DNA from: Alphaproteobacteria bacterium
GTDB lineage: Bacteria; Pseudomonadota; Alphaproteobacteria; UBA9219; RFNS01
Direction of reading: 5' to 3'
NCBI GenBank assembly: GCA_037200005.1
Contig: JBBCGY010000001.1
Location: 42,416-106,415 of the forward strand
Length of the DNA: 64,000 bases
Positions 27,112-64,000 of this stretch are shown in pieces (within the stretch, counting starts at the first letter, position 1; every line of letters begins with the position of its first letter). Both the position numbers and the translations under genes were made by a program. The notes beneath the pieces were generated by a model. That model saw only the letters and a list, made by a program, of their open reading frames with translations. It was not told where the DNA came from and searched no databases.

Positions 27112-27187
27112 GACCTTGTAGCTCAGCCGGTAGAGCATCTGACTTTTAATCAGGGGGTCGCGGGTTCGAACCCCGCCGAGGTCACCA
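27112..27187 (+). tRNA. tRNA-Lys (anticodon UUU) with encoded CCA
   Basis: Cloverleaf: acceptor gaccttg/cgaggtc; D-arm gctc-agccggta-gagc; anticodon arm tctga-cTTTTaa-tcagg; T-arm gcggg-ttcgaac-cccgc; discriminator a; CCA. Confidence 0.9.
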
Positions 27188-45976: not shown

Positions 45977-46024
45977 GAAACTCCTGGAAACAACGGATGG
46001 ATTCGCGAGGATGGAATTATAGAA

Positions 46025-46639
46025 TCAGTCAGCGCGCAAACGATAGCCGAAACGCACCTTCGCCGTCGCGTTTTCGGAACATTGCCCGGCGGCGGTGCCG
46101 ATGATCGCGGTCGGGTTGGGCGGCAAAGCGGTGATTGGGGCGTCATTGATCGAAGCCGCGGCAAGTCCGCGGGAAATTTCGCCCGGTGCTGTCGCTTTCA
46201 AGACCAGCGCGGCGCAGGCGGCAGGCGGCAGATTCAGGTAATCGACGGTGTATTGGAACGCTTCGGGCGCATCGCATCCCGCCGCGCCGGTTCCCGCCAC
46301 CGTTCCGCGCGTTACCGTCACCGCCGTGCCCCAGGGGCTGGAGATGTTATTCGCCTGCAGCATTTCGCGCGGGATGAGGGGCGGATTGATCGCCGTCAGC
46401 GTCGCCGTCAAATCGCCGGTCGCGGCGATGCAGGGCCGCTCCTGGTAATAAGTGCGGATATTCTTGTTGATAACGAGGAGTTGCTCGCCGGTCTGCTGAA
46501 GTTTTACCGAATCGCGCGTGCTGACGATCACCAGCCATACGCCGCCGAGAATTACGCCCGCGACCCCGAACACGATGGCAAGCTCGATGAGCGTCACCCC
46601 GGCGCAGAACTTTCTGGCTCTTAATCGATGCTGTTTCAT
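46025..46639 (-). CDS. type IVb (pseudo)pilin, paralogue 3
   Basis: Prepilin leader followed by VTLIELAIVFGVAGVILGG (class III signal). ATGA-coupled to the upstream pilin gene. Confidence 0.7.
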   Translation of the reverse strand: MKQHRLRARKFCAGVTLIELAIVFGVAGVILGGVWLVIVSTRDSVKLQQTGEQLLVINKNIRTYYQERPCIAATGDLTATLTAINPPLIPREMLQANNISSPWGTAVTVTRGTVAGTGAAGCDAPEAFQYTVDYLNLPPAACAALVLKATAPGEISRGLAAASINDAPITALPPNPTAIIGTAAGQCSENATAKVRFGYRLRAD

Positions 46640-47304
46640 GACGGATTCAGCCTGAAGGCAAAATAAAGACGGTTGGCATTGGCGCTGGTGCAACTGGCGG
46701 CGAGCCAGGTAGGCGTAGGCGGCATAGGAGTGGCAATCGCGCCGGGAATGGCGGCGTCTCCCGTATCGACGCCGATACCGACCAAACCGACCTGATCCAT
46801 GACCCCCAACAATTTAGTGCCCAGATCGATGCATGCGGCTTGCGGCAGATTGCGCAGCATAATCGTAATGCCATAGCGGGGATTCACGTTGCCGAAGGCA
46901 TTGGCGACGGGGGAAGCGGACACGCAAATCGTACCGTCGCCGCAAATCGATCCCGCGCCGTCGGAACTCCAGGGATGGGCGAAATAGCAGGGCGCTCCCA
47001 GACCGCAAGTCTTCGGATCGGCATCGGGCGTCAATTTGGTTTCGGCGGGAAATACATCTTTCCTCGCGACCCTTTGCGTGAAAAGAATATAGTCCTCATC
47101 CGGCAAGATCGCCGCATTCGTATAAGCGTCGCGGACATTTTCCACGATCTGCTGCAATTGATCGACGGCGCGGTTGATGTTGTGATGATGGGCCACGGCG
47201 CGCGCGCCGAGCCATATGGCGCCCGCCAGCATGCCCGCCACGCCCAGCACGATCGCAAGCTCGATAAGGTTGAACCCGCGCTGTCGATGCGGCATGCGGC
47301 GCAT
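46636..47304 (-). CDS. type IVb pilin, paralogue 2
   Basis: Leader MRRMPHRQRG|FNLIELAIVLGVAGMLAG. Shared NLPxxAC motif. Confidence 0.75.
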   Translation of the reverse strand: MRRMPHRQRGFNLIELAIVLGVAGMLAGAIWLGARAVAHHHNINRAVDQLQQIVENVRDAYTNAAILPDEDYILFTQRVARKDVFPAETKLTPDADPKTCGLGAPCYFAHPWSSDGAGSICGDGTICVSASPVANAFGNVNPRYGITIMLRNLPQAACIDLGTKLLGVMDQVGLVGIGVDTGDAAIPGAIATPMPPTPTWLAASCTSANANRLYFAFRLNPS

Positions 47305-47325
47305 TGTCCGTTCTCCATTCCCTGA

Positions 47326-48003
47326 TTACCGCAGCATAAACGCCCATTCCAGCGTCACCAGACCGCCCGCCGCCGCATTCTGGCATTCCGTGACCGCCTG
47401 CGTCGGATTAACCGGCAGGCTGGTCCCATTCGCCCACACCGTTCCCGCCGCCGTATAGGCCGTCCCGGCAGGGCCGCCGAATAGAACCGCCCGCAGCATC
47501 ATTTTCTGATCCGGCGCGGAGATGCGCGACGCGAGCGCGATACAAACGTCAACCGGCAAATTGGCATAACGCACGCCAAAACTTGTTTCGCCCGGCGCGG
47601 CGGCGGCGGCCGTATTCAGATCCTTGTCCATCGGCTCGACGACAACCGCTCCCCAATCATTGGCGGGCGGAGTGCCGGGCACGCCGCCGATCATGTCGCT
47701 CGGAAAAGCGCCCTGGCAGCTCAATTTGGCCGTCAAATCCGCAGGATTGCAGCCGCCAATCGGGCTGTTGTCATGATAAATTCCCCGCTGGCTGGTATAA
47801 ATGCCGCGCACATTGGCGACAATTTCGAACAGCTGTTCGCCCGCCTTGTTGATGGAAGTGGAGCGGCTCACCCGGCCCGCCGCGAACATAATCCCGGCGA
47901 CGACCATTCCAGCGACGCCCAGCACGATGGCGGCCTCGACCAAAGAGAAGCCGGAGAATGAGCGGCCCCGCCTTCTGTTTTTTTCTCTCCGGCTAAAATC
48001 CAC
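47326..48003 (-). CDS. type IVb pilin, paralogue 1
   Basis: Long leader ...RGRSFSG|FSLVEAAIVLGVAGMVVAG. Confidence 0.7.
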   Translation of the reverse strand: MDFSRREKNRRRGRSFSGFSLVEAAIVLGVAGMVVAGIMFAAGRVSRSTSINKAGEQLFEIVANVRGIYTSQRGIYHDNSPIGGCNPADLTAKLSCQGAFPSDMIGGVPGTPPANDWGAVVVEPMDKDLNTAAAAAPGETSFGVRYANLPVDVCIALASRISAPDQKMMLRAVLFGGPAGTAYTAAGTVWANGTSLPVNPTQAVTECQNAAAGGLVTLEWAFMLR

Positions 48004-49093
48004 TGCCGCCGCCCTTGCTCGAGTCGCTGATGACCACGGTGATATGCAGGATCGAGCTCATGGCGAAGGCGATGACGGTGCCGACCACGGCGAGGCCGAT
48101 ATTCCGCACCACCACCGACTGCGCCTTAAGCTCGTCGATCTGCTCCCTGATCCATTCCTGGGTCACTTCCTCGATCACCGAGCCGATATCGCCGCGCTCG
48201 GAGAGAATTTCCATGTCGAGCGCGACCTGCGGATCGGGGAAACCGTAATTGCCCTGGCGCAGCGCCTCGCCGAGATTCTTGCCCTGCAGCACCGCTTCGA
48301 CTGCCGACGCGATCCGCTCCTTGATCCAGGGATTGCCCTGCTGTTCCAGGATTTCCAGCGCGCGGCGCAGCGGCACCTGCGCGCCCATGAGCGCCGAAAG
48401 GCCGAGCATGAAGCCGCTGCCCTGCCAGATGCGGAACCACGACCAGGGCGGATATTTATCGAACTTCGCCCGCGTCTTGCCCCTCCAGAACGGCATCGTG
48501 ACCGAAGTGATGACGGCGAGCGTGCCGATCGACAAAAGAATGGCGATGCCCCATTTCATGATGAAATCCGACACGTCGGCGAGCGGCCCGATCGATTCCA
48601 GCACCGCTTTCGGCGCGTTCTTGCGCATATTCTGGATCAGGTTGACGCCGAACATCCACAAGACGCCAGAAATCAGGATGATCATGAAGGCGGGATAGGT
48701 GATCGCCTGCATGACGGCGGTGCGCATTTCCTTGGCGCTCTCGCCCATCATCATGATGGAACGCAGCGACTTCGCCACGGTGCCCGATTCTTCCCCGGCG
48801 CGGAGCATGTATAATTCCGCCGACGGCACCCATCCGGCCATCGCCTGCGAAAGCGAATCTCCCGCCCGGTCGCGCTGCAGCCATTCGCGCAGCGCCATCG
48901 CCGCGGGGCGATTCGGGTATTTGCCCATCTCGCTGGAATTGTACCAAAGCCGCTCCAAGGCGCGCGACAGCGCCTCGTTCATCGCCAGCATGCCCTGAAG
49001 CTTGCGATAGACGCGAAAGCGCATCTTCGTGTTGCTGCGGAATTTCCACATGGCGTAGGAGCGTGAGAACTCTGCGCTATTCATCGCCATACA
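47993..49093 (-). CDS. type IV pilus assembly inner-membrane platform protein (GspF/PilC/R64 PilR-like)
   Basis: GspF-like topology of two repeated domains with three TM helices. The start is set at MAMNSAEF. Confidence 0.75.
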   Translation of the reverse strand, partial: CMAMNSAEFSRSYAMWKFRSNTKMRFRVYRKLQGMLAMNEALSRALERLWYNSSEMGKYPNRPAAMALREWLQRDRAGDSLSQAMAGWVPSAELYMLRAGEESGTVAKSLRSIMMMGESAKEMRTAVMQAITYPAFMIILISGVLWMFGVNLIQNMRKNAPKAVLESIGPLADVSDFIMKWGIAILLSIGTLAVITSVTMPFWRGKTRAKFDKYPPWSWFRIWQGSGFMLGLSALMGAQVPLRRALEILEQQGNPWIKERIASAVEAVLQGKNLGEALRQGNYGFPDPQVALDMEILSERGDIGSVIEEVTQEWIREQIDELKAQSVVVRNIGLAVVGTVIAFAMSSILHITVVISDSSKGGGSGF

Positions 49094-51009
49094 CCGAGGC
49101 GCTGCTCGACTTCGGCGATCTCGCGTTCGCGGGCGAGCGGCCCGACCTCGACTTCGGCGTCGGCGGGAGAAACTTCGCCGCGGCGGATTTTTTCGAGAGC
49201 GTGCCAGGCCATCGTGATGCCATTCAGCCCATGGGGCGAAAGCCAGTATTCCTCGGCCTCGATGATCTTGCCCTCCTGGAGCAGATTCATCAGCTTGATA
49301 TCGGTTTCCGCTACCTCGGCGCAAACTGTGCGCCCGCTGCGCCCCTTGAAGCATTTCGGGCAGCCGTCGGGATTGGCGACGTAAATCTGGCTCATGTCAG
49401 GCTCCTCGATCCGGTCGAGGGCGGGCTGTCCCGGATCGGCCTTCATGCGGCGCGCGATCATCAGCGCGAGGCCGGTCCGCACCCGGCGCGCGAGGTCTTC
49501 GTAATCCGGCCCGAACTGCTTGGGCGCTTCCTTGATCGGAACGCGGCAAGAGGGGCACAGGCCCTTGAGCAGCCTTTGGCAGAACATGCCGCACAGCAGA
49601 TGCGGATCATAAATCAGATAAGGCTCGATGCCGAGATCGAGCAGGCGGCGCGGCACGGCGATCGCCGAATAGACGTGCAGCGTCGTGTAAATCTGCCGCC
49701 CGGAAAGCGCCAGGCGGAAGGCGAATTTGGCGGTCTGGATGTCGCGGATTTCGCCGAGCATGACGATGTCGGGATCGAGGCGCAGGGCGCTGCGCATCAC
49801 TTCCGAAAAGCTTTTCTCGCGCTGCTCTTCCTTGACTGACGCGGACACGCCGATCTGGCTCGCGCCCATCACGCCGCCTTCCGGCGGGTCTTCGATCAGA
49901 TAGCATTTGCGGTCGAAATTGGTTTCCACCATGCGCCGGTTGAGCATCACGCGCAGCGTCGTGGTCTTGCCTTGGTTCACCGGGCCGGAAAATATCCGCA
50001 TGCCGCCGGGCAGGCTGCGCAGGAAGCGCACCGTCTTGAGCTGTTCCTGGGAAAAGCCGATCGAATCGACATCCGCCATGGCGAAATTCTCGCCGAACAG
50101 ATGCGCCGAGTCATATTGCAGGCGCATATTGAGATAGCGCCCCCCGTCCGACAGCGGCACCCACTGGCAGCGCATCGACGGCACGCCGATCGGAAGCTGG
50201 ACGGATTCCTGACCGCCGGTTCCGGCCAGCATCGCCGCCTGCGGCTCGAGCCAGTTGGCGGTCGCGCCCGACTGGCCGATCGAATGCGAATAGACGGCGG
50301 ACAGAACCTGCTCGCCTTCGCGCTGAGTCCAGGTTTCCCACAGGCGCAGCGCGCCATCGACGCGGAACTCCACCTTGGCGCGGCCGCCCGCCGCCTCGAT
50401 GTGAATGTCGTTGGCGCCCATGTCGGCGGCCTGCTGGATCATCTCGACGATCTTGCGCCTGACGGCATTGTCGTCGAGGCGAACCATCGCCGCCTGGCGC
50501 TCGGCATAGGCATAGGCCTGCTGCACGATATTCGGGGTGACGTAATGCGGCTCGTCGACTTTATAGCCTTGCCGCCGCGCCTGCAGCGCCACCGAAGTGA
50601 CGAGCGGCGAATTGCGGTGCGCGGCGCTGACCAGCCACATGCCGTTATCGAACAGCGCGCAGAAATTGCGCGACTCGGCAGTGATTTTGAGCGTGCTGCC
50701 CTCGACGGTCAGCACCAGGCCGGTGAATTTCAGCGCCCCGGACAGCGCCATCGAGCGCTCGTCAACGATCTTGATCTGCTGCTGCGCCGCAATGGCGGTT
50801 TTGGCCGCGTTATCCGCGCCCGAGGACGCCGCCTTGCCCTGCGCGGACGGCGCTTGATCGGGGGATGGCGGGGCTTCCGGCGGAGGGGACGGCGGCGCAA
50901 CGGCTCCCTTGGCCGGCGCGGTCAGCTCTCCGGACTTCGGCGCTGGTTTCGACGCCTCCGGTGCCTTATTGATAAGTTTGCGGGTGCGGTCGGCGAGATC
51001 GGACAGCAT
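49081..51009 (-). CDS. type II/IV secretion ATPase (GspE/PilB/R64 PilQ-like) with A/P-rich N-terminus and C-terminal tetracysteine
   Basis: Walker A GPVNQGKTTT. Asp/His boxes. C-terminal CPSC...CPKC. Confidence 0.8.
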   Translation of the reverse strand: MLSDLADRTRKLINKAPEASKPAPKSGELTAPAKGAVAPPSPPPEAPPSPDQAPSAQGKAASSGADNAAKTAIAAQQQIKIVDERSMALSGALKFTGLVLTVEGSTLKITAESRNFCALFDNGMWLVSAAHRNSPLVTSVALQARRQGYKVDEPHYVTPNIVQQAYAYAERQAAMVRLDDNAVRRKIVEMIQQAADMGANDIHIEAAGGRAKVEFRVDGALRLWETWTQREGEQVLSAVYSHSIGQSGATANWLEPQAAMLAGTGGQESVQLPIGVPSMRCQWVPLSDGGRYLNMRLQYDSAHLFGENFAMADVDSIGFSQEQLKTVRFLRSLPGGMRIFSGPVNQGKTTTLRVMLNRRMVETNFDRKCYLIEDPPEGGVMGASQIGVSASVKEEQREKSFSEVMRSALRLDPDIVMLGEIRDIQTAKFAFRLALSGRQIYTTLHVYSAIAVPRRLLDLGIEPYLIYDPHLLCGMFCQRLLKGLCPSCRVPIKEAPKQFGPDYEDLARRVRTGLALMIARRMKADPGQPALDRIEEPDMSQIYVANPDGCPKCFKGRSGRTVCAEVAETDIKLMNLLQEGKIIEAEEYWLSPHGLNGITMAWHALEKIRRGEVSPADAEVEVGPLAREREIAEVEQRLGVWR

Positions 51010-51015
51010 AATATC

Positions 51016-51855
51016 TCACGGCGCCCCGCGCCCATGGCTTAAAGCGCCGGCATTGTCGATGCGAAGGCTGTGCTCGTTTTTATCGCCCGGAGATTTAAGT
51101 TGAACCGTCGTGGCGTCGATGAGCTGGACTTCGGTGCCATCGGCGAGCTTGTCGCCGGCGCGCACATTGATCGTCTTGCCGTCCTGCGCAGAATCCAGAT
51201 CGGCGCTGTATCTTCCGCCGGCGCCGACGATCTTGTGCACTTCATAATCCGCGGGCGAAACGGCCGATGGCGTCCGGCGCGGCGCGGAAGCCGAGGCAAG
51301 CTCGGTCACCGGCACGGCCAGAGAGGCCTTTTGCATTCCCCTGGGCATTTTCGTGACGCCGGAGGGCAGCATGGCGCCGACTTCGCTCGCCATGTCGTCC
51401 CCGCCCTCGCGCTTGGCGCGAGCTTTTTCGAGATCATGCATTTTCTGCTCGAGTTCCAGCAGAAGATCGAGGCGCGCCAGCGCTGCGCGCGCCTGATTCA
51501 TGTCTTCGAGGCTGAGATCGATTTTTCCCGTCTCGAGCTTTTTCATCACGCTTTTAACCTGATCGGGAATTTCCTTGTCTTCGCCGGTCCCATCAGTCGC
51601 ACTAGCCGAAGCGGCTTTGGTTTCCTCGGTCGTCCCTACTCCCGGGCCGCCGGGAGGATGGGCGAGATTGATTCCGCCGCCGGGCTGTCCCGCCTGCGCG
51701 GGGATCGATGGCGCGGCCGATGATGCGGCGCCCGTCATGGCAGCGGTATGGGCGACGGCGAGATCGGTTACGGTCGTTTGGGCAAAAGCCATGGAAGACG
51801 CGGCGCCGAGGGCCAGCACAAAGGCCGGAAACCAAGATCTAAAGGCAATTCTCAT
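51016..51855 (-). CDS. secreted pilus-assembly-associated protein (R64 PilP-position), coiled-coil
   Basis: RBS GAAGGAG. Signal peptide MRIAFRSWFPAFVLALGAASSMAFA. Confidence 0.45.
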   Translation of the reverse strand: MRIAFRSWFPAFVLALGAASSMAFAQTTVTDLAVAHTAAMTGAASSAAPSIPAQAGQPGGGINLAHPPGGPGVGTTEETKAASASATDGTGEDKEIPDQVKSVMKKLETGKIDLSLEDMNQARAALARLDLLLELEQKMHDLEKARAKREGGDDMASEVGAMLPSGVTKMPRGMQKASLAVPVTELASASAPRRTPSAVSPADYEVHKIVGAGGRYSADLDSAQDGKTINVRAGDKLADGTEVQLIDATTVQLKSPGDKNEHSLRIDNAGALSHGRGAP

Positions 51856-52129
51856 CCTACACTCCTTCGACCAGCCAGGGATCGTCCGATCGGTCAAACT
51901 TCTGATAAAGCCCCCAGGATCGGAGGCCCCATACCTAATCTGGGAAGTCGGTTCATCATCGGCGAATAGGGTTAAGTTCCCGTAAACATAGGCTTTATGA
52001 ACCTCGTGCCATTAACGAATGGTTATCGCCCTGCGGCAAGGCGTCAGTTTTGAAATCGGGCATGGAGGGGGATTGGCCTTCATGTCGGCCTAGACGCGGC
52101 GCGGCGCGGCGGCAGGGCGACAAAAAGCG

Positions 52130-53386
52130 TTATTTTCTGTTTTCGTAGATCACGCCGCTGATCTGCCAGCTTCCGCTCTGCGAGACGATGCTGTTGATGA
52201 TAACGCCGGGAACGCCGCCGAAATATTGCGGCAATTCGCCTGGTAAATCGGTAACCTTCAGCGTGAATCCGCGCTTGATCCAGGGCGTAGGCGGCGGATT
52301 CCAGTCTTCCGGCCGCACATTTTCCGGTTTCGGCGGCGGCGGATCGTCAGGCAGGCGCGAAATCGTGCCGTTCCAGTTCTGCGCCAGATAGCGTTTGGTG
52401 ATTTCCGCCGGATCGATCAAATCCTGGGGGCCGCGATTTTTCAGGCCCTCGATCGGCACGCCGCGCGAAGCGTTCGACCCCGATGGATCGATGGAGGCAT
52501 CGGCAAGGGGCTGAGTGTAGCCGACGATGCGGGTCCATGACAGCGACAGGCCGCCCTTCGCGCAACTTAATGTGCTAAGATTCCATCCCAGCCTCGCCTG
52601 CGGCACCTTGTCCAGCGCGACGCGGCACGCCTCTATCAATTCCAGAGGATGAGGCTCATCCTCCCAGAACCGCTTCGGCGGCGGATACGCGATCTGAATC
52701 GGACCGCCGAGACCCGCCGCTTTCATTTCGATCGCACGCTTCTGGGCCTCGATCCTGATCAATTCCCTTTGCGCTTCCTGCGCTTTTTCTTCCTGGTATT
52801 GGTAATACCAGAATCCCGCGATACCCAATACGACGACGAGCGCCGTGACGGCCACGCCGATAAGGATCGCGCGCGGTATCTTGACCGGCTGCAAGGGGCA
52901 GTCGCCGCGATTTTGCAGCACGAAGGGAAGCGCGACCGTTTCCGAAGCGGGAATCGACCATGCTTCAGGAGCATAGATGCGCTGCAGGCCGCCAAGCGTG
53001 ACTTCCTGGATAAGACGGTCGCGGGCGCTGGCGTCATCGAGATATATCTGGTCACCGTCCGGCGCGATCAAATCGTCGCGCACCACGATGACCACGATGC
53101 CTTCGCTTAACTTGAAGGCGCCCGCCCATGAACCCGGCAGCCGGTTGGCAAGCGACGCGGCCAAGGTCGCCATGCCGAGCTTGTGGCCGGATTGCTGAAG
53201 CCCCAGACCGAACTGGGCGACGCGGCCGCCCTTGACGCCGGGACGCACCGCAAAAAAGTCGGCGTGCTGGCCCGGCTGGCGCGCCGCCTCTTTAGCCGCT
53301 TGCGCGACACGGCCGCTCGGCGAAGGCTGCCAATAGAGGCCGACCGCGTATTTGCGCCGTCCGACTGTCGCGACGCCAGATCCCAT
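52130..53386 (-). CDS. bitopic membrane protein, R64 PilO-like type IVb pilus biogenesis protein
   Basis: Single central TM (ILIGVAVTALVVVLGIAGFW). Position and architecture are as in IncI thin-pilus loci. Confidence 0.5.
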   Translation of the reverse strand: MGSGVATVGRRKYAVGLYWQPSPSGRVAQAAKEAARQPGQHADFFAVRPGVKGGRVAQFGLGLQQSGHKLGMATLAASLANRLPGSWAGAFKLSEGIVVIVVRDDLIAPDGDQIYLDDASARDRLIQEVTLGGLQRIYAPEAWSIPASETVALPFVLQNRGDCPLQPVKIPRAILIGVAVTALVVVLGIAGFWYYQYQEEKAQEAQRELIRIEAQKRAIEMKAAGLGGPIQIAYPPPKRFWEDEPHPLELIEACRVALDKVPQARLGWNLSTLSCAKGGLSLSWTRIVGYTQPLADASIDPSGSNASRGVPIEGLKNRGPQDLIDPAEITKRYLAQNWNGTISRLPDDPPPPKPENVRPEDWNPPPTPWIKRGFTLKVTDLPGELPQYFGGVPGVIINSIVSQSGSWQISGVIYENRK

Positions 53387-53654
53387 TAGGGTCCAACCTT
53401 AATTAGAATGGGGTTTCGCGCAGGCGAAAAAGCCGCCCGGCTACGAAAAGACAGAAGCAGGTATCGGCGACTACCTGCGAGGTCTTTGAGAACGCCGGTC
53501 GGCTTTTTCGCCGCGCCCCTTGGGTATGCAAAAGAAGGCCGATCTGCGTTGTCGGCTTCGCTCGCCGTAGATTGACTACGGCTTCGCTCGCCTCCTAGCA
53601 TCTCAGCCTTCTTTTGCATACGAAACTCCCATTCTAATTAAGGTTGGACCCTAG
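53386..53654. mobile_element. MITE-like ~265-bp element with 33-bp terminal inverted repeats and two nested internal inverted repeats
   Basis: Terminal IRs tagggtccaaccttaattagaatgggg(t)ttcg at 53386-53417 and 53621-53654 (1 mismatch). Nested IRs gcgaaaaagccg/cggctttttcgc and gtatgcaaaagaaggc/gccttcttttgcatac. The element fills the space between the secretin stop and the pilO-like start. Confidence 0.6.
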
Positions 53655-55219: not shown

Positions 55220-55270
55220 CCAAGGCTAATTGAGGCGCGAACCTTATGACTTAATTGTTAACATTGGCTT

Positions 55271-56713
55271 TCATTCTCCGCCGCTGTTGCCGCGCGTTTC
55301 GATCACCAGAATTCTCTGCCCCGCGGTCGGATTATCATGCAAGCGCCCGAAAGGCTGCGGCTTGGCGTCGACAAAACCGCTAAGCAGATTGCGCACGGCG
55401 TCTTCGAACGAGCCGGAGAAATTCACGCTGGCCTGAATCGGATAGTCATATTCGGTCGCCCATACCAGTTCGACATTGGCGCGCTCGCTCCACTTTTTGA
55501 TGACGGCGCGCAGCTGATCACCCGGTTCGGCTTTCCACGCTTCCGCCGGAGCGGCTTGCGTCGCAGGCGTGAGGGGACTCGGTGTCACGACGGAGCCCGT
55601 TACCGGCGGCGCATCGGACGGCGGCGCGGCGGTAATAGGCTGAACCGCATCCACCGCATCTTTCGCGGGAGGCACGGAAGCCGGCGCGGGCTCAACCGGC
55701 GGCAAGGGTGGCGGGGCATCGGCGGCAAGCGCGGGCGCGGCGGCCGCGGCAATCATCGAATCATCCACGACCGGCGGCAGCGCGGCAGCCGTAGCCGGCG
55801 TTTCCAGCGGCGGCAGAGGCACCATCATGGCCTCGGGGGGAGCACCCGCCACAGGCGCGGGCATATCGGAGCCGGCCGGCGTTGCGGCAGCGGCCGCCGA
55901 AGGAACAGGCGGCGCCTCGGTGGGCAACTCGGCTACCGGCAAAGGCGCGGGAACTTCCAGCGGAGCGGCGGACGCTGCATGCACCCCTGTTTTACCGCCC
56001 AGACCCGCGCGGGCAATTTTGACGATTTTACCCTCTTCCTGGGCCGACAGCCCCGCGCCCGTCAGAGCATCATTCAGCACCGTCCGCCAAGGCTTGCCGC
56101 CCTGCCAGTCGACCGACGTGGAATTGTCTATTCCCTGCTCCAGCGCAAAACCGTAATCCGGCGGCAAAATCTGTTTGAGCGCGACCGTAAGCGGAATCTT
56201 CTTGCCAAATCCCACAATGGCCGGCCCTTGGTCAACCGGAAGAGGAGGCGGGACATCGGCGGCAAGCGTGGGCGCCAATTCCGGCGGCGGGACGGATAGC
56301 GGCGCAGACGGCTCTATCGGCGACGGCTCTATCGGCGGCAAGGGCACCGGAGAAGCAACGGCAGCCATAGGCTCAAGCGGCAATGGCTCCATCGGCGCCA
56401 AGGCTTGCGGCGACGATGCCACAGGAGAGGCGGCCGCCGGGGGGCTTACTTCCGGCAATTGCATGGGAGCGGGCAAAGCGGCCTGATCGGCAGGCGCTGG
56501 CGCAAGCGGAACTGCCGGCACATCCTCGACAGGAGCGGGAACGGGCGCGGGTGCAAGCGGAACCGCGGCAGGAGCCTCTTCAAGCGGCGTGACCCACTGA
56601 AACCCGGCCTGGGCGGTGCCGCACATAAGCGTAACGCCGATGATGCCTAATGCGAGACTGAGCAAGAGACGATGTTGTCGGGCAAACCAGGCCATGAGCG
56701 AACACTTCCGCAT
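55271..56713 (-). CDS. TcpQ-domain protein (R64 PilL-like), Pro/Ala-rich
   Basis: Signal peptide, long PAPxP low-complexity region and C-terminal TcpQ-like domain (WKAEPGDQLRAVIKKWSERANVELVW). Confidence 0.55.
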   Translation of the reverse strand: MRKCSLMAWFARQHRLLLSLALGIIGVTLMCGTAQAGFQWVTPLEEAPAAVPLAPAPVPAPVEDVPAVPLAPAPADQAALPAPMQLPEVSPPAAASPVASSPQALAPMEPLPLEPMAAVASPVPLPPIEPSPIEPSAPLSVPPPELAPTLAADVPPPLPVDQGPAIVGFGKKIPLTVALKQILPPDYGFALEQGIDNSTSVDWQGGKPWRTVLNDALTGAGLSAQEEGKIVKIARAGLGGKTGVHAASAAPLEVPAPLPVAELPTEAPPVPSAAAAATPAGSDMPAPVAGAPPEAMMVPLPPLETPATAAALPPVVDDSMIAAAAAPALAADAPPPLPPVEPAPASVPPAKDAVDAVQPITAAPPSDAPPVTGSVVTPSPLTPATQAAPAEAWKAEPGDQLRAVIKKWSERANVELVWATEYDYPIQASVNFSGSFEDAVRNLLSGFVDAKPQPFGRLHDNPTAGQRILVIETRGNSGGE

Positions 56714-56759
56714 AGGAGGGATAAAACCGATTCGTGATTCATACTACGTTATAGTCAGT

Positions 56760-56960
56760 CCGCTTGAAAACCCGAAAAAACTCCGTCGCGCCTACCCCGT
56801 CATTAAGGAGGAAACCCATCGCGAGCGCGACATAGATTTTTCGGATTTTTAGGCGGACGTCATCCACATCACTTGAAAACCCAAAAAATATTCTGTCGCA
56901 TCCGCATGGCTTTACTGCTTGGGGGAGAACGATGGCGACGGAATATTTTTTGGGTTTTCA
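56760..56960. promoter_or_regulatory. three copies of a CTTGAAAACCC(A/G)AAAAA...GTCGC motif (two direct, one inverted) in the pilL-icmT intergenic region
   Basis: Copies at 56765-56792 and 56869-56900 (direct) and 56926-56958 (inverted; a 28-bp near-perfect IR with a ~30-bp spacer). Confidence 0.45.
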
Positions 56961-57115
56961 AGCCAAGTAACTATAGGAAATAGCCGGAAAAGCGCCATGA
57001 GAAAACAACAATTTTCGACTTTTCCCCAGAAGCAGGCGTGACATGGGTGCAACGGACGGTGAACAACAAAGATTAACGGATAGATAAGCGGGAAACAAAC
57101 CGCTCGATAGCGGCT

Positions 57116-57427
57116 TTATGAAGCGGTTTCGTCGCTCTCTTCCTGCGCCCGGGCATCTGCGGCGCCATAATCGGTCATGCGCCGCCGCAAAAGACGGATT
57201 GTTGCCGGACGCTCTTGGCCAAGAACCCAGCAGCGCAGGGCGCGCAGCGCCGACTCGAAGCTCAAGCCGCGCTGCTCGACGGCCCAGAAGATCAAAATCG
57301 TGATGACGGTCAGCGTCAAGGTCCAAAGCTGGATATACATCAAGCAGGCCAGAACCACGAAAAAAAGCCGCGCGTCAAAGATAAAGAAGCGGGCGATTTT
57401 CTGACTATTGCGCCAATGATCATCCAT
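57116..57427 (-). CDS. IcmT/TraK-family small membrane protein of type IVB secretion systems
   Basis: MDDHWRNSQKIARFFIFDARLFFVVLACLMYIQLWT matches the IcmT/TraK signature (HWRdS..pArFF.fDAR...hIrLWT). 103 aa. Confidence 0.6.
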   Translation of the reverse strand: MDDHWRNSQKIARFFIFDARLFFVVLACLMYIQLWTLTLTVITILIFWAVEQRGLSFESALRALRCWVLGQERPATIRLLRRRMTDYGAADARAQEESDETAS

Positions 57428-57513
57428 AATTCAGACTCCAGATGTCGGTGATCGGAAAGGGCAACGCGCGCCCTATCCGCCGGTTTCGGATAACTGGCAA
57501 CCGGTATTCGACT

Positions 57514-58743
57514 TTATACGTCCGTCGTTACGGTATCGTTAACGGCTTGCGTCGCCAAAGGCTCGAAATTCTGGTCTTCCCGTTCGTCGCCGGAGAAGCC
57601 CTTGGTAAGCAGCAGATACCAGCGGCGATCGATCAGCCCCGCCTTGAACGCCGATGTCGCCGATTGTTCCATGGTCTTGCCGTAGCGCACGAGCAAACGC
57701 TGGGCCTCGCTGGTCCAGCGCTCGATCGGCATATCAAGCAGAATTTCGCGGACATTCTCGTCAAAGATCATGAATTCGCGCAATCCCATGCGGCCGCCGC
57801 CGACTTTAGGCACGAGCGCCTGCGTGACGATCATGCGCAGCGTTTCCATCAGGGCGAAAGCGCGCTCGGAACGCTCGGAGGGCTCAAACACGCTGACCAT
57901 GCGTCGAATGGTGGCCGCCACCCCGGTCGTATGGGCCGTGGAATAGACCGCGTGGCCGGTTTGCCCTGCCTCAATGGAGGCCGAGACCGTTTCGCGATCG
58001 CGCGATTCGCCGACCAGGATAATGTTGGGCTTGCGGCGCAGCGCGTTGCGCACCCCGGCCGCGAAATTAGGCAAATGCTTTGGGATTTCCGATTGCGAAA
58101 CCAGCGACCGCTCGCCGACGATCGAATCGTACACATATTCGATCGGGGCTTCATAGGTCAGCATCTTGCCGCAGCCCTGAGCCCGCTCGATCAGCATCCG
58201 GTTGCCCGCGGCAAGCAATGTCGATTTGCCGCTGCCGGTCGGTCCCGTCACCAGGATCAGCCCCTGGCGCGGCGCCCAATTATCGATGATTTTTTCCTCG
58301 ATCCCCAGTTCGTGCATCGTCGGGGGAAGATTGGGCAGCGACCGCATGGTGATCTGCACCCCGTCCCGCCCTCTGCTCAGCATGGCCGTGATGTTGACGC
58401 GAAAACGGTAACGCGTGTTGCGATCGGGCCTAACCTCGTAGGACAAATCGAGATCGACGCCCGACGCAAGCTTGGCGATAGCGTCCTGGCCGTAAATTTT
58501 GGCCAGGACATTGGCCATATCCGCCGAATCGATCGATCGCCTGGTTATCGGAAACAGGACGCCGTCGACTTCGATATAAACCGGGCGGTCGGTTTGAATG
58601 CTGACGTCGGTGGTGCGCCGCTCGACGCACCACATCAGCAGGCCGTCGACATGCTCTTCGCGAATGCGCAAAGGCTCATCGGTCCAGGTTCCAAGCTCTT
58701 CGCTTTTGCGCCTGGCATCCGCTAGCGTAGCGTCGACTGCCAC
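57514..58743 (-). CDS. PilT-like hexameric ATPase, DotB/TraJ family
   Basis: Walker A LVTGPTGSGKST. Walker B/His box NIILVGESRD...HAVYSTAHT. PilT-type N-terminal domain. Confidence 0.8.
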   Translation of the reverse strand: MAVDATLADARRKSEELGTWTDEPLRIREEHVDGLLMWCVERRTTDVSIQTDRPVYIEVDGVLFPITRRSIDSADMANVLAKIYGQDAIAKLASGVDLDLSYEVRPDRNTRYRFRVNITAMLSRGRDGVQITMRSLPNLPPTMHELGIEEKIIDNWAPRQGLILVTGPTGSGKSTLLAAGNRMLIERAQGCGKMLTYEAPIEYVYDSIVGERSLVSQSEIPKHLPNFAAGVRNALRRKPNIILVGESRDRETVSASIEAGQTGHAVYSTAHTTGVAATIRRMVSVFEPSERSERAFALMETLRMIVTQALVPKVGGGRMGLREFMIFDENVREILLDMPIERWTSEAQRLLVRYGKTMEQSATSAFKAGLIDRRWYLLLTKGFSGDEREDQNFEPLATQAVNDTVTTDV

Positions 58744-59618
58744 TGTTCGCTCCGCGGAATAAGCGTGGATTGGCCGGTGATGGTAACGCCCCGGTCGCCG
58801 ATGCGCATTTCGGCGCCTCCGCCCGTGATGCCGCGATCCTCGTGAATCGCGAAGGGCGGAGAAATCATCCCCTGCGCCAGCAATTCACGGTAATGCACCA
58901 TGCCGACGAAATCGCTCGTCATGCGATCGAGATCGGCCTCGAAAGTATCGTCCGCCTGAATCACGCCGGCGTCCCACCCTTCCTTGACCCATTTGCGCCA
59001 ATCGGCGCGCTCTTCCTTGGTCTTGGGCACCAGGAGGCCCGGCGGCGGCTCCACTTTGCCCCAATCGCGCTCCAGATACAGGCGCCAGTCGCGCGAGGCC
59101 GTGACGATGCGGGCGATGCGATTGATGCGGATAATCCGGTCGGCAACGGCAGCCTTTTGACCGCCGCCGGTCACGATCACGGCGCGCTGGGCGTCCGAGA
59201 CGATCGGCGGCTCGATCAAAAGCCCCGAAGGAGCGTTAATGAGCAGCCTTTTGAAATCGAAAGTTTTGCTGAGGGTCGCTTCCTGTTCGGCAAGACGGCG
59301 CTGGATTTCAAAAGTGCGGTGGGCAAGGCCGCCGCGAGCGCCGTATGAAAGGGCCGCTTCGCGCAGCGCGTCATGACGGATTTGAAGCCCCATATTCTCG
59401 CTGGGCTTGGCGTTGACGCCTTCCGTCTGTTCCTGCAGCTGCCACAGATCGGGAGGCGGTTCGAGCGGCCCGACTGGCGTGCTGTCGGCCCACGCCGGCA
59501 TTGCCGCCAACAACAGCAGTCCGATCACGATAGCGGAAAGCCTGCGCATTTCAGATTTTACCGTCGGTTGGAGCATAACGCAATTGCACCGCGCCGGCCT
59601 TGGCATCGACCGCGACAT
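58722..59618 (-). CDS. periplasmic T4BSS component, DotC/TraI-like (tentative)
   Basis: Signal peptide. Size (~298 aa) and position next to the DotB and DotD homologues. No strong motif, so the assignment is tentative. Confidence 0.4.
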   Translation of the reverse strand: MSRSMPRPARCNCVMLQPTVKSEMRRLSAIVIGLLLLAAMPAWADSTPVGPLEPPPDLWQLQEQTEGVNAKPSENMGLQIRHDALREAALSYGARGGLAHRTFEIQRRLAEQEATLSKTFDFKRLLINAPSGLLIEPPIVSDAQRAVIVTGGGQKAAVADRIIRINRIARIVTASRDWRLYLERDWGKVEPPPGLLVPKTKEERADWRKWVKEGWDAGVIQADDTFEADLDRMTSDFVGMVHYRELLAQGMISPPFAIHEDRGITGGGAEMRIGDRGVTITGQSTLIPRSEQWQSTLR

Positions 59619-60070
59619 CGGCCCGGTTGCCCAGCTGCAGCCCGATATCGCGCAAGATATCGATCAGCGGCCGCTCGTAAACATCGACCGCGACCGTAAG
59701 GGGGACGGGCGTAGGCATACCCGCCGTCCGATAGGCGTAACCGGCCTTGGCCGCCAGAGTCTGCACCAACTGCTCCGCCGGTCCGTTCCAGGTTATGGTC
59801 ACGGGCTGCGAGAGGGCGTGCGGCGCGCCCATGAAATCTTCCATCGGCGGCAGCGGATTGCGATATTGCTCGATCCCAGCGACGGTATTGAGCGCTTTAG
59901 CCGCCTTTTCCGAAGCCTGGGCAATACGAAAAGCAACCGGATCGTTTTCAGCGACGAGAGGAGACACCGTTGGATTCGGCTCCTGACATGCCGCGAGCGG
60001 CATCAGCAGGATGAGAAATAAAGCGCCCGTGAAAGCGCCGGCGCAAGTAAGTGTAAATTTGGGCATGAAC
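59551..60070 (-). CDS. small lipoprotein, DotD/TraH-like (tentative)
   Basis: Lipobox LLMPLAAC after MFMPKFTLTCAGAFTGALF. ~170 aa, following the DotC-like gene as in IncI/Dot-Icm loci. Confidence 0.4.
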
Positions 60071-60217
60071 ATCGATCCCTGTCGATATCGGAAGTCAAGG
60101 GGCGATTCTGTTTTAAGCACAAGCACAGCCAAAAACCAAGCCCTAAACCGACATAGAGCGCGATCATTCCTCAGTGAAGTGTGTCTGCGCGTCCATGGGG
60201 ATGATCGCGCTCTAGCT

Positions 60218-60517
60218 CTAAGTCCTGAAGCGCATGAAGAACATCGCGTAGCCGAACAGCGCTCCGGCAAGAAGCAGAAGCAGAAGGCCGTTGAGCCACA
60301 CGCCGTTAATAAGAAAATAAAGCCCGAGCGCCGCGATCACGGCGGACGCTATGCCGTAAATCACCGTCGCATTCGGCATGGCGCCCTGCTTGGGCGGCGG
60401 GCTGGCCGGCCCCGACGGCACATAGGGAGAAACCGTCTGCCCGTTTCCCGGGGCCTGCAACGATTTGCCGCCGCCTATGGCGGGAACGGCGGGCGGCTTC
60501 TCTGAATCACGGGCCAT
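60218..60517 (-). CDS. small Pro-rich membrane protein (99 aa)
   Basis: Two C-terminal TM helices (VIYGIASAVIAALGLYFLINGVWLNGLLLLLLAGALFGYAMFF). Confidence 0.4.
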   Translation of the reverse strand: MARDSEKPPAVPAIGGGKSLQAPGNGQTVSPYVPSGPASPPPKQGAMPNATVIYGIASAVIAALGLYFLINGVWLNGLLLLLLAGALFGYAMFFMRFRT

Positions 60518-60549
60518 GGATCACCTCTTCCCCGCATTGCCGATGATCG

Positions 60550-61536
60550 TCATGGCGACAGATCCGACAGGATGGTGGCGACCTTGTCAGGCTTCCCGAG
60601 CACGACTTTGATCTTGCCGTCCTTGCCGCGATAAACAATGTAGGGCGTCGCGGAAATTTTCCATTCCTTGGTCATCTCCATGGTCGCCCGCACCGCCGTA
60701 ATATCGGCGGTGGGCGGCACGCCGGCAAGAGCGTTGGCATCGCCATCCACGAACTGGCTCCAAGCCTTGAAAGGCTCGGCCACGCGCAGGAATATTGCAG
60801 ACTGGCGCTCGTCTTCGCTGTCAGGCGCGCCGATGGGCAGTAATTTGACGCGCAGCTCTCCCTTGTCGACATGATCCTTGAGTTCTTTCCATGTCGCCTT
60901 GCAGAAGGGGCAATGGGGCTCGACCAGCATTACCACGAGCGGCTTGTCGCCTTGGCCCATGGTCACGCCCACCGCTCCCTGGAAATCCTGATAGAGTCGC
61001 TCGCCGGGCGACAGGGACACGAGTTCCGGCGGTCCACTTTTCGACGCAGGCTGCGGGTCACTGCCGCCACCGCCGCCCACCTTTTGAATTTCTTCCTGTT
61101 TTTCTGCCGCCGAAGTCAGCAGCGCCTTGATCTGGGGTATCTGCATGCCGACCGTATTCATTTGCTCGGCGGTAATATTGGTGCCCTCGGCCGAGAACAT
61201 CGCGCCGAAAAGCAATGACTGGCGATCGGGAGCGATATAGAAAAACTGAAGCTGCCCGTCTTTCTGCAGCATGAAGCCGGGCATGCCGGAACGCTCGCCC
61301 ATATAATAAAGCTCGGCGCCTTGCTGCAGCATCGTACGCAACACCGGTATCCTCTTGATATCCACATCGGTCGCAGGCATCTGCTGCGCCTTGGCGATCT
61401 CCGCCGGATCGGCCTTGAGCAGGGCGCCCACCGGTATTTGCGAGGATTTCTGGGCCGCCGCTGGAAACGCAAAAAGCGCAACCGCCAGAGTCAAAGGAAA
61501 AAGCCGCTTTGTCAGGGATTTCATCGTCATGGTCAT
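60550..61536 (-). CDS. DsbC/DsbG-like thiol:disulfide interchange protein (conjugative TrbB-like)
   Basis: Signal peptide. Thioredoxin-fold active site VEPHCPFCK. Dimerisation-type N-terminal domain. Confidence 0.7.
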   Translation of the reverse strand: MTMTMKSLTKRLFPLTLAVALFAFPAAAQKSSQIPVGALLKADPAEIAKAQQMPATDVDIKRIPVLRTMLQQGAELYYMGERSGMPGFMLQKDGQLQFFYIAPDRQSLLFGAMFSAEGTNITAEQMNTVGMQIPQIKALLTSAAEKQEEIQKVGGGGGSDPQPASKSGPPELVSLSPGERLYQDFQGAVGVTMGQGDKPLVVMLVEPHCPFCKATWKELKDHVDKGELRVKLLPIGAPDSEDERQSAIFLRVAEPFKAWSQFVDGDANALAGVPPTADITAVRATMEMTKEWKISATPYIVYRGKDGKIKVVLGKPDKVATILSDLSP

Positions 61537-62021
61537 TCGTCCACCTTGGCTATTTTAACGTTCCGATTCTCGGCTCCCGCCGCTGATTTCGGCGGCGGAT
61601 TTGCGGCGTATAACTCGTGCGCCACCAGCCCCTTATGCTCCATCACATCGATGACTTTGCCAGCATATCGCCCGCCGCGCCAGGGGGTAGCGGAATGATA
61701 ACGCGCGATACCGCCGCGCAAATAACCCGCTTCATCGATTTTCTGCCGCAGAATCCAGGCGGAAACATAAACATTGACGCAGCCGTTATCGCGCACCCAT
61801 TGCCGCGCGGTGCCGCCATCCACGCCCCACAGCCGCGCCAATTGCGGCATCCATACCGTGTTGACTTGCATCGGGCCTAAATCGTAGCTGCCATTGGTAT
61901 TATGGACTTCCTGGCCCACGCGGCCGCCCTCGACATGCATCATGGCAATCATCACCGCCGGCGGTACATGATAGGTTTGAGCGGCGAGCAGCAGGCATGC
62001 TGCGATCATTTGCGAAGTCAT
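61533..62021 (-). CDS. lytic transglycosylase (SLT domain; R64 PilT / VirB1-like)
   Basis: SLT catalytic region AMMHVEGG...SYDLGPMQVN. 4-bp overlap with the trbB-like gene. Confidence 0.8.
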   Translation of the reverse strand: MTSQMIAACLLLAAQTYHVPPAVMIAMMHVEGGRVGQEVHNTNGSYDLGPMQVNTVWMPQLARLWGVDGGTARQWVRDNGCVNVYVSAWILRQKIDEAGYLRGGIARYHSATPWRGGRYAGKVIDVMEHKGLVAHELYAANPPPKSAAGAENRNVKIAKVDE

Positions 62022-63971: not shown

Positions 63972-64000
63972 AAACTGTCCGTTCTTGCATAGCCTCTGCA

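Follow-up and report, generated by a model that had tools for sequence, protein, structure and literature searches.

The chromosome of an uncultured alphaproteobacterium, which NCBI labels 'MAG: Alphaproteobacteria bacterium', carries a block of 18 genes that joins a subset of a Dot/Icm-type secretion system (T4BSS) to an R64-type type IVb pilus operon. This block probably belongs to a vertically inherited, effector-translocating T4BSS whose co-encoded pilus serves for attachment to a target. The 18 genes, all intact open reading frames that point the same way and either overlap or are separated by short gaps, lie at one end of the window, the whole stretch of 64,000 nucleotides that was analysed. 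A core module (u293, a lytic transglycosylase, a DsbC-like isomerase, u99, DotD, DotC, DotB and IcmT) has upstream of it a tandem array of PAR proteins together with the Cys/Pro-rich U14 protein, and downstream, on the same strand, the pilus operon from PilL to three pilins. Every gene named in the original prediction was recovered in its place on the minus strand by Pfam, NCBIfam or profile matches, and the identities given to the T4BSS and pilus genes were correct. Three genes that it had passed over (u99, u293 and the 3' part of a PAR gene) are all members of the conserved cluster. The chromosomal location was supported as well: the block abuts ordinary genes, with nhaA (44839-46164) adjoining it and glycosyltransferases, pepN, pagL, cca and rsmB beyond. 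No description of such a T4BSS and pilus cluster was found in the searchable literature.

All coordinates below refer to the minus strand. In nearly all relatives the core module begins with u293 (62026-62907), a conserved 293-aa cytoplasmic all-alpha protein with a mean column identity of 58% across species. The lytic transglycosylase (61533-62021), of the VirB1/TrbN/IncI1 PilT-like type, fell short of the NCBIfam cut-off in its matches to TrbN (86.6 bits) and to IagB (40.9 bits), and its family profile matched the IncI1 PilT lytic transglycosylase (E = 6.5e-13). The periplasmic thiol:disulfide isomerase (60550-61536) is DsbC/DsbG-like (DsbG 89.5 bits, Thioredoxin_2 27 bits, and DsbC_N); it matches IncI1 TrbB weakly (E = 4e-6) and would have the role of that protein. 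u99 (60218-60517), whose 99-aa sequence holds two C-terminal hydrophobic helices (membrane), had no family match and no IncI1 match; its own family comprises 50 members from 50 loci, always between Dsb and DotD. The DotD/TraH lipoprotein (59551-60072; lipobox LAAC) was identified by PF16816 (E = 7e-27) and by NF033882 at 81.6 bits, below the NCBIfam equivalog cut-off of 140. The outer-membrane core protein DotC/TraI (58722-59549; PF16932, E = 3e-72) has a plain signal peptide without a lipobox Cys and a mean column identity across species of 66%. DotB (57514-58743), the PilT-like hexameric ATPase of the T4BSS, scored 404.9 bits against the DotB model TIGR02524, which is under its equivalog cut-off of 463.3, versus 229 bits against the TraJ model. 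The module closes with the small inner-membrane protein IcmT/TraK (57116-57427; NF038220 81 bits, cut-off 40; PF28014 in precomputed calls).

After a gap of 402 nt, the pilus block opens with a PilL-like gene (55271-56713), whose product combines an STN domain (22 bits), a long stretch rich in Pro and Ala, and TcpQ at the C-terminus (57 bits) and matched IncI1 PilL by profile (E = 1.4e-12). The PilN-type lipoprotein secretin (53651-55219; lipobox VAAC) carries Secretin and Secretin_N_2 domains and scored 239.7 bits against TIGR02520, and its family profile reached 267 bits with IncI1 PilN. It is followed by the type IVb pilus accessory protein PilO (52130-53386; PF06864 over the full length at 88.9 bits; IncI1 PilO, E = 1e-16) and by a PilP-like protein (51016-51897) that had no Pfam match and was recognised by its conserved position and by a family profile match to IncI1 PilP (E = 8e-11). 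The 642-aa GspE-family assembly ATPase (PilQ-like; 49081-51009; T2SSE 180.5 bits) is 29% identical to IncI1 PilQ (167 bits). The GspF-family platform protein (PilR-like; 47993-49354) shows T2SSF in two stretches and scored 130 bits with IncI1 PilR; its counterparts in relatives are 362-371 aa long, and the true start probably lies near 49080. Three type IVb-like prepilin genes (together 46025-48003) gave Bundlin, PilS and N_methyl matches: pilin 1 (47326-48003; leader junction G/FSLVE; 27% identity to IncI1 PilS), pilin 2 (46636-47304; G/FNLIE) and pilin 3 (46025-46693 or 46025-46639; G/VTLIE). The block lacks pilM, pilU, pilV and rci, and holds no shufflon.

At position 64000 the window cuts through a secreted Cys-rich PAR gene, of which the 3' two-thirds occupy 62997-64000 and which continues to about 64550. 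This 517-aa paralogue is the last of five in tandem (510, 547, 501, 557 and 517 aa), and a 624-aa Cys/Pro-rich secreted protein of the U14 family lies ahead of the array. The original prediction had placed the remaining tra genes, the prepilin peptidase and the PilV adhesin beyond 64 kb; the next 8.9 kb instead consists of the five PAR genes and the one U14 gene, with no further tra genes. The PAR paralogues have signal peptides, share six invariant Cys and are 31-71% identical to one another. Their junctions carry a 261-nt repeat that is 97% identical, which shows ongoing tandem duplication. Neither family had a Pfam, NCBIfam or PDB match, and the best PDB match of the PAR superfamily profile was a weak one to TrwJ, the VirB5 homologue of plasmid R388 (E = 0.006), which is marginal and rests partly on the signal peptide. 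By strict profile match, 27 of 48 loci have PAR/U14 genes upstream of u293, a position kept also where no pilus operon adjoins; because it is conserved, we regard both families as part of the system. One relative has the housekeeping gene rpoN immediately upstream of them. We read the PAR proteins as fast-evolving, disulfide-rich secreted proteins.

The same cluster is found in 73 species-level MAGs, whose labels are Alphaproteobacteria, Micavibrio, 'Bdellovibrionales' or Rhodospirillaceae. DotC identity in these 73 loci is 50-76%; with the best database matches the range is 50-80%. Its closest relatives carry the latter three labels, and the link to predatory Micavibrio comes from the names that NCBI gives to MAGs, not from a phylogeny. 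The genome paper of M. aeruginosavorus ARL-13 reported no type IV secretion system (PMC3189940). Gene set and order are unchanged in dozens of species, and all relatives examined share one and the same core module. The pilus operon adjoins it in 40 of the 53 loci that reach far enough, and the other 13 carry DotD-C-B-IcmT without adjoining pilus genes. The housekeeping flanks vary (nhaA here; rpoN, htpG, truB-ruvCAB-tolQ or RNase E in relatives), and in several relatives such genes lie directly on both sides. More than 2000 homologues of DotC (E<=1e-10) are in the database, the best 120 matches being 62-80% identical. That this T4BSS lineage is seldom described beyond IncI plasmids and Legionella/Coxiella may be true of the literature, but it does not hold for sequence databases.

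Relatives encode DotG, DotF, DotE, DotN, DotO, DotM and DotL in a second region. On one 823-kb contig this region (L079), in the order DotG-DotF-DotE-(117 aa)-DotN-DotO-DotM-(173 aa)-DotL, lies about 130 kb from the cluster (L080). DotL is found within 6 kb upstream of the cluster in six loci, DotO, DotN, DotE and DotF adjoin it in three (L073, L074 and L078), the first two of these also with DotG, and one further locus (L058) holds DotO, DotN and DotM. A DotI-like gene was seen in L052 and weak DotA-like matches in L039 and L054; none of the loci yielded DotH, IcmX, IcmS/IcmW or a clear DotA. At least eight contig sizes are common to the DotC and DotL match lists. This gene content suggests two or more Dot/Icm gene blocks on the chromosome, of which this is one. 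We infer that the second is present in this genome too; it was not seen in the window or in the 8.9 kb past it.

In the system that we propose, the pilus would attach the cell to its target, which could be bacterial prey or a eukaryotic host. The envelope-spanning core would be formed by DotC and DotD together with DotG, DotH and DotF, which are encoded elsewhere, and the lytic transglycosylase would open the peptidoglycan. Protein effectors would be translocated by the action of DotB, along with DotO and the DotL-DotM-DotN coupling complex (also elsewhere). The DsbC-like enzyme may fold the Cys-rich PAR and U14 proteins, candidates for machine parts that vary and are exposed at the surface or periplasmic. 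The analysis shows the gene identities, their conservation and synteny, and that mobile-element signatures are lacking; function, substrates and target are inferred.

The original prediction took the block to be probably part of an integrated element. On that reading it would be an IncI-like conjugative element (ICE or plasmid), with the rest of tra, a relaxase and an integrase further along the chromosome. Conjugative plasmids of the IncI type (MPF_I) are where thin-pilus genes beside traH-K homologues are otherwise typically seen, the DsbC-like TrbB and the lytic transglycosylase are IncI features, and 3727 plasmid records contain DotC homologues, of which 3213 are predicted to be conjugative. 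However, identity to IncI1 proteins is 26-31%, the best plasmid DotC match reaches 41%, and megablast against the plasmid collection gave no match. The G+C content of the block (0.58-0.64) is like that of the flanking housekeeping genes (0.60-0.66). The sole integrase of the window (25691-27031) sits 19 kb off in a separate tRNA-Lys island of low G+C (0.45-0.55), and the block boundary has no integrase, att-like repeat or tRNA. Neither the window nor 1.2 Mb of related loci yielded a NikA/NikB homologue or other relaxase, the next 8.9 kb is free of tra genes, and shufflon, rci and pilV are missing. With the cluster kept in 73 species between varied housekeeping flanks, an integrated element is highly improbable. 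That reading is already largely refuted.

A stand-alone hybrid machine, in which a type IVb pilus apparatus works with DotB, DotC, DotD and IcmT independently of a complete T4BSS, is unlikely, though less so. DotB would then be a PilT-like retraction or auxiliary ATPase and DotC and DotD secretin-associated outer-membrane partners, and PAR and U14 proteins might be what the machine exports or displays. The tight same-strand adjacency kept in 40 of 53 loci speaks for this, as do the closeness of DotB to PilT (155 bits to PilT structures) and the housekeeping genes bounding the cluster on both sides in several relatives. So does a weak match of the DotD family profile to the IncI1 PilN secretin (E = 4e-4), which fits the secretin-N0-like fold reported for DotD (PMC2951367). 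Against it, 13 of 53 loci carry DotD-C-B-IcmT with no pilus genes adjoining, IcmT and PilL are separated by the 402-nt gap, the Legionella core-complex proteins match DotC and DotD 1.5 to 5 times more closely than the others tested do, and relatives with an identical cluster also encode DotG, DotF, DotE, DotN, DotO, DotM and DotL. A degenerate, non-functional remnant of a former T4BSS or plasmid is scarcely credible. The window does hold only a Dot/Icm subset, and the block is without prepilin peptidase and PilV; yet all 18 genes are intact and in one orientation, mean column identity across species is 66% for DotC and 58% for u293, dozens of species share the gene set and order, and the PAR array is still duplicating. 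Absence of further genes downstream had been proposed as the sign of a remnant. The next 8.9 kb lacks tra genes. This test does not apply, because no gene is broken, conservation is strong, and what is missing here occurs in the relatives' second region.

A vertically inherited effector-translocating T4BSS is also the reading that agrees with the affinities of the T4BSS genes, for which the label 'IncI/R64-like' was a poor fit. Legionella Dot proteins scored about 1.5 to 5 times higher than IncI1 TraJ/TraI/TraH: 358.5 bits (PDB Legionella DotB) versus 175 bits for DotB, 143 versus 94 bits (31% identity) for DotC, and 56.7 versus 11.8 bits for DotD. DotD, DotC, DotB and IcmT are homologous to, and best matched by, those of Legionella Dot/Icm. 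As in that system, dotD-dotC-dotB are contiguous (Legionella region I), the genes are split over separate chromosomal regions, the relatives' second region follows the Legionella order icmE-G-C-D-J-B with the DotL-DotM-DotN coupling complex, and no dedicated relaxase was found. The differences are that the host is an alphaproteobacterium outside Legionellales, that IcmT follows DotB as in IncI traK, that the locus also encodes a type IVb pilus operon, a lytic transglycosylase and a DsbC-like protein, that DotC lacks a lipobox, that there are new accessory families (PAR, U14, u293 and u99), and that the search gave no DotH, IcmX or IcmS/W and only a weak DotA.

The claim that the block reproduces the traH-traK plus pilL-pilS organisation of IncI1 plasmids (R64/ColIb-P9; MPF_I) stands for the internal orders, traH-I-J-K and pilL-N-O-P-Q-R-S, but not for the order of the two blocks, since pil precedes tra in IncI1 and follows it here. 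Both share the PilN-type lipoprotein secretin, PilO, PilP and PilS-type pilins, as well as the lytic transglycosylase and DsbC-like TrbB. They differ in protein sequence (26-31% identity), in the absence here of pilI/J/K/M, the pilU peptidase, the pilV adhesin, the rci shufflon, traE/F/G and the NikAB relaxase, and in that this cluster is chromosomal, host-like in G+C and inherited across a lineage. In the type IVA Trw system of Bartonella, the surface subunits trwL and trwJ-I-H are tandemly amplified. We take this to be a possible parallel, a secretion-system locus with a tandem array of diverged secreted-component paralogues, differing from ours in T4SS class (IVA) and in component size (PAR about 500 aa, VirB5 about 230 aa).

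The minus strand of the window carries an uninterrupted run of co-oriented genes from 46.0 to 64.0 kb. The gene list read from the sequence in the original prediction was borne out by Pfam and NCBIfam searches, and for PilP by a family profile. The T4BSS genes, all on the minus strand, encode a lytic transglycosylase (61533-62021; NCBIfam TrbN 86.6 bits, IagB 40.9 bits), a DsbC/G-like thioredoxin matched in both Pfam and NCBIfam (60550-61536), a DotD/TraH lipoprotein with a lipobox (59551-60072; PF16816, E 7e-27, 94.4 bits, cut-off 27), a DotC/TraI outer-membrane core protein (58722-59549; PF16932, E 3e-72, 242.7 bits, cut-off 26.1; Legionella DotC, E 9e-41), a DotB/TraJ ATPase (57514-58743) and IcmT/TraK (57116-57427; NF038220, 81.1 bits, cut-off 40). 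DotD scored 81.6 bits against the NCBIfam equivalog, under the cut-off of 140. TIGR02524 (DotB) was the best family for the ATPase at 404.9 bits, under the equivalog cut-off of 463.3, and the match to DotB in the PDB reached E 3.8e-106. Three minus-strand genes had been overlooked in the first reading: u99, a two-helix membrane protein of 99 aa (60218-60517); u293, a protein of 293 aa (62026-62907); and the 3' part of a gene for a secreted Cys-rich protein of a family here called PAR (62997-64000). The signal peptide of DotC (…LLLLAAMPAWA/DS) is of the plain kind, with no lipobox Cys, and the consensus of 22 relatives likewise has no Cys in the N-terminal region; Legionella DotC is a lipoprotein. 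Promoter and terminator scans of 45.8-64 kb gave counts not above those of shuffled sequences, and a tRNA was the sole Rfam match in the whole window.

The pilus genes follow IcmT. The PilL-like protein with TcpQ and STN domains (55271-56713, minus strand) is longer than IncI1 PilL (480 versus 355 aa); two long Pro/Ala-rich low-complexity stretches, of about 130 and about 170 aa, precede the STN domain and link it to the C-terminal TcpQ, respectively. A PilN-type lipoprotein secretin, which also has a lipobox, scored 239.7 bits against TIGR02520, under the cut-off of 287.65, and its family profile matched IncI1 PilN with 267 bits. PilO was assigned by PF06864 (88.9 bits, cut-off 26.7) and by its family profile against IncI1 PilO (E 1e-16). 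PilP (293 aa, 51016-51897, minus strand), which had no Pfam match, was assigned by its family profile against IncI1 PilP (E 8e-11). The GspE-like ATPase PilQ matched IncI1 PilQ with 167 bits, and the family profile of the GspF-like platform protein PilR matched IncI1 PilR at E 2e-61. Three pilins complete the operon, with leaders of 10-18 aa ending in Gly, F or V at +1 and E at +5 (junctions G/FSLVE, G/FNLIE and G/VTLIE); a PilS-type prepilin was recognised by PF08805 (24.3 bits, cut-off 22) and by Bundlin (25.8 bits, cut-off 22.3). Two gaps were observed in this part: 402 non-coding nt between IcmT and PilL (56714-57115), which may hold an internal promoter, and 264 nt between the secretin and PilO (53387-53650), where the only ORF is a doubtful one of 77 aa that is absent in relatives. 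The last pilin gene abuts nhaA, followed by genes for an oxidoreductase, glycosyltransferases and a thioesterase, then pepN, pagL, cca and rsmB, so the predicted junction with chromosomal nhaA and glycosyltransferase genes was correct. The glycosyltransferase genes adjoining the cluster lie at 39916-41109 and 42670-43824.

ORFs were called and clustered across all loci collected. Over 2000 database proteins were homologous to DotC at E<=1e-10, and the best 120 of these were 62-80% identical and nearly all metagenomic. A scan of GTDB species representatives gave 73 loci, all from MAGs, labelled Alphaproteobacteria, Rhodospirillaceae/-ales, 'Bdellovibrionales', Micavibrio sp. or M. aeruginosavorus; the 'Bdellovibrionales' label arises because NCBI taxonomy places Micavibrio in that order. 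Results showed an invariant core of u293, lytic transglycosylase, Dsb, u99, DotD, DotC, DotB and IcmT. Among the 53 loci reaching far enough, a pilL-pilS-type operon stood directly after the core in 40, as in the window, and other genes did so in 13, with a recurrent arrangement of housekeeping genes in 8-9 loci (SBP, truB, ruvC, ruvA, ruvB, thioesterase and tolQ). Upstream flanks varied (rpoN, htpG, RNase E, or Wzy plus a glycosyltransferase). In some relatives, a patatin-like phospholipase and O-antigen-type genes (GT4 glycosyltransferase, Wzy_C polymerase) were seen directly beside Dot/Icm regions (locus L079 13604-15046, L005 1953-4262 and L080 1043-2248), and a glycosyltransferase gene followed dotL in L005, L023 and L079.

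The original prediction placed the remaining tra genes, the prepilin peptidase and PilV beyond 64 kb. None of these was found in the next 8.9 kb (locus L001, from the 1.83-Mb contig JBBCBH010010965.1 of assembly GCA_037975565.1), which instead holds five PAR genes and one for a 624-aa protein. DotO/IcmB, DotL, DotG, DotH, DotF and DotI were absent from the window and the 8.9 kb beyond; PilU prepilin peptidase, PilV tip adhesin and the Rci shufflon were absent from the block and the same 8.9 kb, and no PilV-sized pilin occurs in the block. Rci matched only an unrelated integrase (25691-27031) and, weakly, a sequence in L051. Further components were located in relatives. The coupling protein IcmO/DotL lies less than 6 kb upstream in six loci, and one metagenomic contig of 823,676 nt carries the cluster at 352-373 kb (L080) and a second region at 205-228 kb (L079). 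This second region encodes the C-terminal part of DotG/IcmE (NCBIfam, 120 bits), a weakly matched IcmG/DotF (NCBIfam), a TraQ/DotE-like protein, a TraQ-like protein of 117 aa, IcmJ/DotN (87 bits), a VirB4-class protein of 996 aa (family against IncI1 TraU, E 4e-123), DotM/IcmP (195 bits) and a protein of 173 aa followed by DotL. In L073, L074 and L078 the cluster has genes for DotO, DotN, DotE and DotF as neighbours, joined in the first two by DotG; L058 has DotO, DotN and DotM, and L052 a DotI-like gene. For DotA/TraY, only weak TraY-like tblastn matches were obtained (L039 and L054, 50-55 bits). At least eight contig sizes were common to the DotC and DotL match lists. The two-region contig, together with the loci holding further Dot genes, indicates that the lineage has a multi-region chromosomal Dot/Icm-type system, and we infer that the second region is also present in the source genome itself.

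The five PAR genes stand in tandem (L001 1953-9911, that is, window 62997-64000 plus about 7 kb past its end) and encode proteins of 510, 547, 501, 557 and 517 aa with pairwise identities of 31-71%, a signal peptide in each and six invariant Cys; the Cys/Pro-rich secreted 624-aa protein precedes them. Neither the five PAR proteins nor the 624-aa protein matched Pfam or NCBIfam. The array units measure 1.55-1.67 kb, and a 261-nt gene junction occurs twice at 97% identity (L001 6521-6781 and 8191-8451), a sign that PAR genes were recently duplicated or underwent gene conversion. Two of the paralogues have near-identical N-termini, and two have near-identical C-termini. In relatives, one to five members of the PAR superfamily (PARa, PARb, f18, f52 and f45, joined by profile search; hhalign probability for PARa-PARb 98.9%) lie upstream of u293, usually preceded by one or two proteins of the Cys/Pro-rich secreted family U14, to which the 624-aa protein belongs by its C-terminal domain. 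The PARa subfamily is very rare, with only two foreign database proteins, both in the same synteny.

Structure prediction of a PAR paralogue from 5 sequences yielded no usable model (pLDDT 34), and profiles of u293 and PARa found no match among PDB sequences. Among PDB sequences, the PAR superfamily profile reached only TrwJ, a VirB5 homologue, and did so marginally (E 0.006), with part of the alignment in the signal peptide; we treat this match as a possible lead rather than a finding. No credible homology was detected by hmmsearch and hhalign between PAR, U14, u293 or u99 and all IncI1 Tra and Pil proteins, including TraW/IcmX, TraL, TraE/F and PilV; PAR and the ORF family f41 gave no significant match to TraW. 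PAR, with its invariant Cys, and the Cys-rich U14 are encoded together with a DsbC-like enzyme, which suggests that they are periplasmic or surface proteins needing disulfide isomerisation. In another MAG (L082 2352-6123), a remote u293 homologue of 467 aa was observed in the order Dsb, u293, small gene, with DotD, DotC and DotB not nearby, so the u293/Dsb pair may exist independently of T4BSS genes. Cluster look-up of remote u293 homologues returned only unnamed metagenomic proteins.

The original prediction took the block for an IncI/R64-like and probably integrated element; the T4BSS and the R64-type pilus stood, and the integrated element was not supported. The G+C content of the block (0.58-0.64) resembles that of the flanking housekeeping genes (0.60-0.66). 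Megablast of the block against 72,556 plasmids gave no match, IncI1 NikA and NikB were not found by tblastn or phmmer in the window or in 83 related loci (1.2 Mb), and no integrase or att site occurs at the block boundary, where nhaA directly adjoins the pilins. On these grounds, an integrative conjugative element was rejected. Nor is the distribution patchy: one alphaproteobacterial group shows the same architecture in 73 MAGs at species level. A degenerate remnant was also considered and rejected. Judged from sequence, we read the locus as a Legionella-like Dot/Icm system passed on by vertical descent in an alphaproteobacterial lineage, named here from MAG labels, and genetically linked with a type IVb pilus and four uncharacterised families.

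The integrase in the window belongs to a separate island, 19 kb from the block with housekeeping genes between. This low-G+C (0.45-0.55) genomic island occupies 1-27187 and ends at a tyrosine integrase gene (25691-27031) and tRNA-Lys(ttt) (27112-27187). Its cargo includes a Fic protein (7159-8319), a type I R-M system with hsdR split into three ORFs (8504-9565, 9540-10163 and 10133-11680), an Rhs protein of 1793 aa (14821-20202) and an Rhs fragment (21475-22668), with one Sel1-repeat protein after the Rhs protein and another after the fragment.

The known roles of the homologues suggest how such a system might work. The type IVb pilus would attach the cell to its target; in liquid matings the IncI thin pilus makes this contact with recipients. 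The lytic transglycosylase would open space in the peptidoglycan, DotC and DotD would nucleate the outer-membrane core with DotG, DotH and DotF encoded elsewhere, and DotB, DotO and a DotL-DotM-DotN complex would power the machine and choose its protein substrates. The variable extracytoplasmic parts would be PAR and U14, possibly in a tip, plug or translocon. The window and 83 related loci yielded no relaxase and relatives have DotN and DotM, which favours protein translocation over conjugation. Micavibrio is an epibiotic predator of bacteria, and we know of no account of how it kills and feeds. The target could be bacterial prey, if Micavibrio-like epibiotic predation is shared, or protists. 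A more far-reaching proposal, which we consider rather unlikely as a whole, is that in Micavibrio-like epibiotic predators the Dot/Icm-type T4BSS serves as a prey-attack organelle: the type IVb pilus would tether the cell to Gram-negative prey, effectors would be injected across the prey envelope, the tandem, recombining PAR/U14 arrays would be variable contact or translocon parts setting prey range, and the pilus plus T4BSS with Legionella-like order would represent a surviving intermediate form linking IncI conjugation systems with the effector translocators of Legionellales.

Recent reviews regard Dot/Icm systems of the effector type as a distinguishing mark of intracellular Gammaproteobacteria, namely Legionellales, Piscirickettsia and some Francisellaceae (PMC11338181, PMC8896642). 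The genome paper on M. aeruginosavorus ARL-13 reported that evidence of type III and type IV secretion was lacking and that the T2SS was incomplete, without GspC, G, H and K (PMC3189940); this 'T2SS' might correspond to pilus genes like those of the block. The searchable literature nowhere links Micavibrio or Micavibrionales with Dot/Icm and does not describe the system, and the automatic annotations 'DotC' and 'IcmO' already stand in NCBI and JGI records. A large alphaproteobacterial lineage, mostly uncultured and including Micavibrio-labelled MAGs, conserves a system closely related to Dot/Icm. If functional, this system would give the lineage a candidate apparatus for contact-dependent attack or for manipulating a host, would tie four uncharacterised families, two of them fast-evolving and in tandem arrays, to a T4BSS, and would offer a natural genetic coupling of a type IVb pilus with a Legionella-like T4BSS that bears on the divergence of IncI and Dot/Icm systems.

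Compared by phmmer, the core proteins scored higher against Legionella than against IncI1: 358.5 bits versus 175 bits for TraJ with DotB, 143 versus 94 bits for TraI with DotC, and 56.7 versus 11.8 bits for TraH with DotD. The NCBIfam DotB model likewise exceeded the TraJ model (229 bits) on the DotB gene. Identity to IncI1 Tra and Pil proteins was 26-31%, and the best plasmid match of DotC was 41%, to a Roseomonas plasmid. The second region of relatives (L079) shares with Legionella region II the gene order icmE-G-C-D-J-B. The IncI1 map runs pilI...pilV, rci, traE-K, traL-Y, trbABC, nikAB; its within-block orders are the same as here, whereas the tra and pil blocks are swapped and pilM, pilU, pilV, rci and traE-G are missing from our block. 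The features shared with IncI plasmids are the thin pilus, the DsbC-like TrbB, the lytic transglycosylase and icmT after dotB. Bit scores and gene order therefore indicate that the block joins a T4BSS of the Legionella type to features known otherwise from IncI plasmids.
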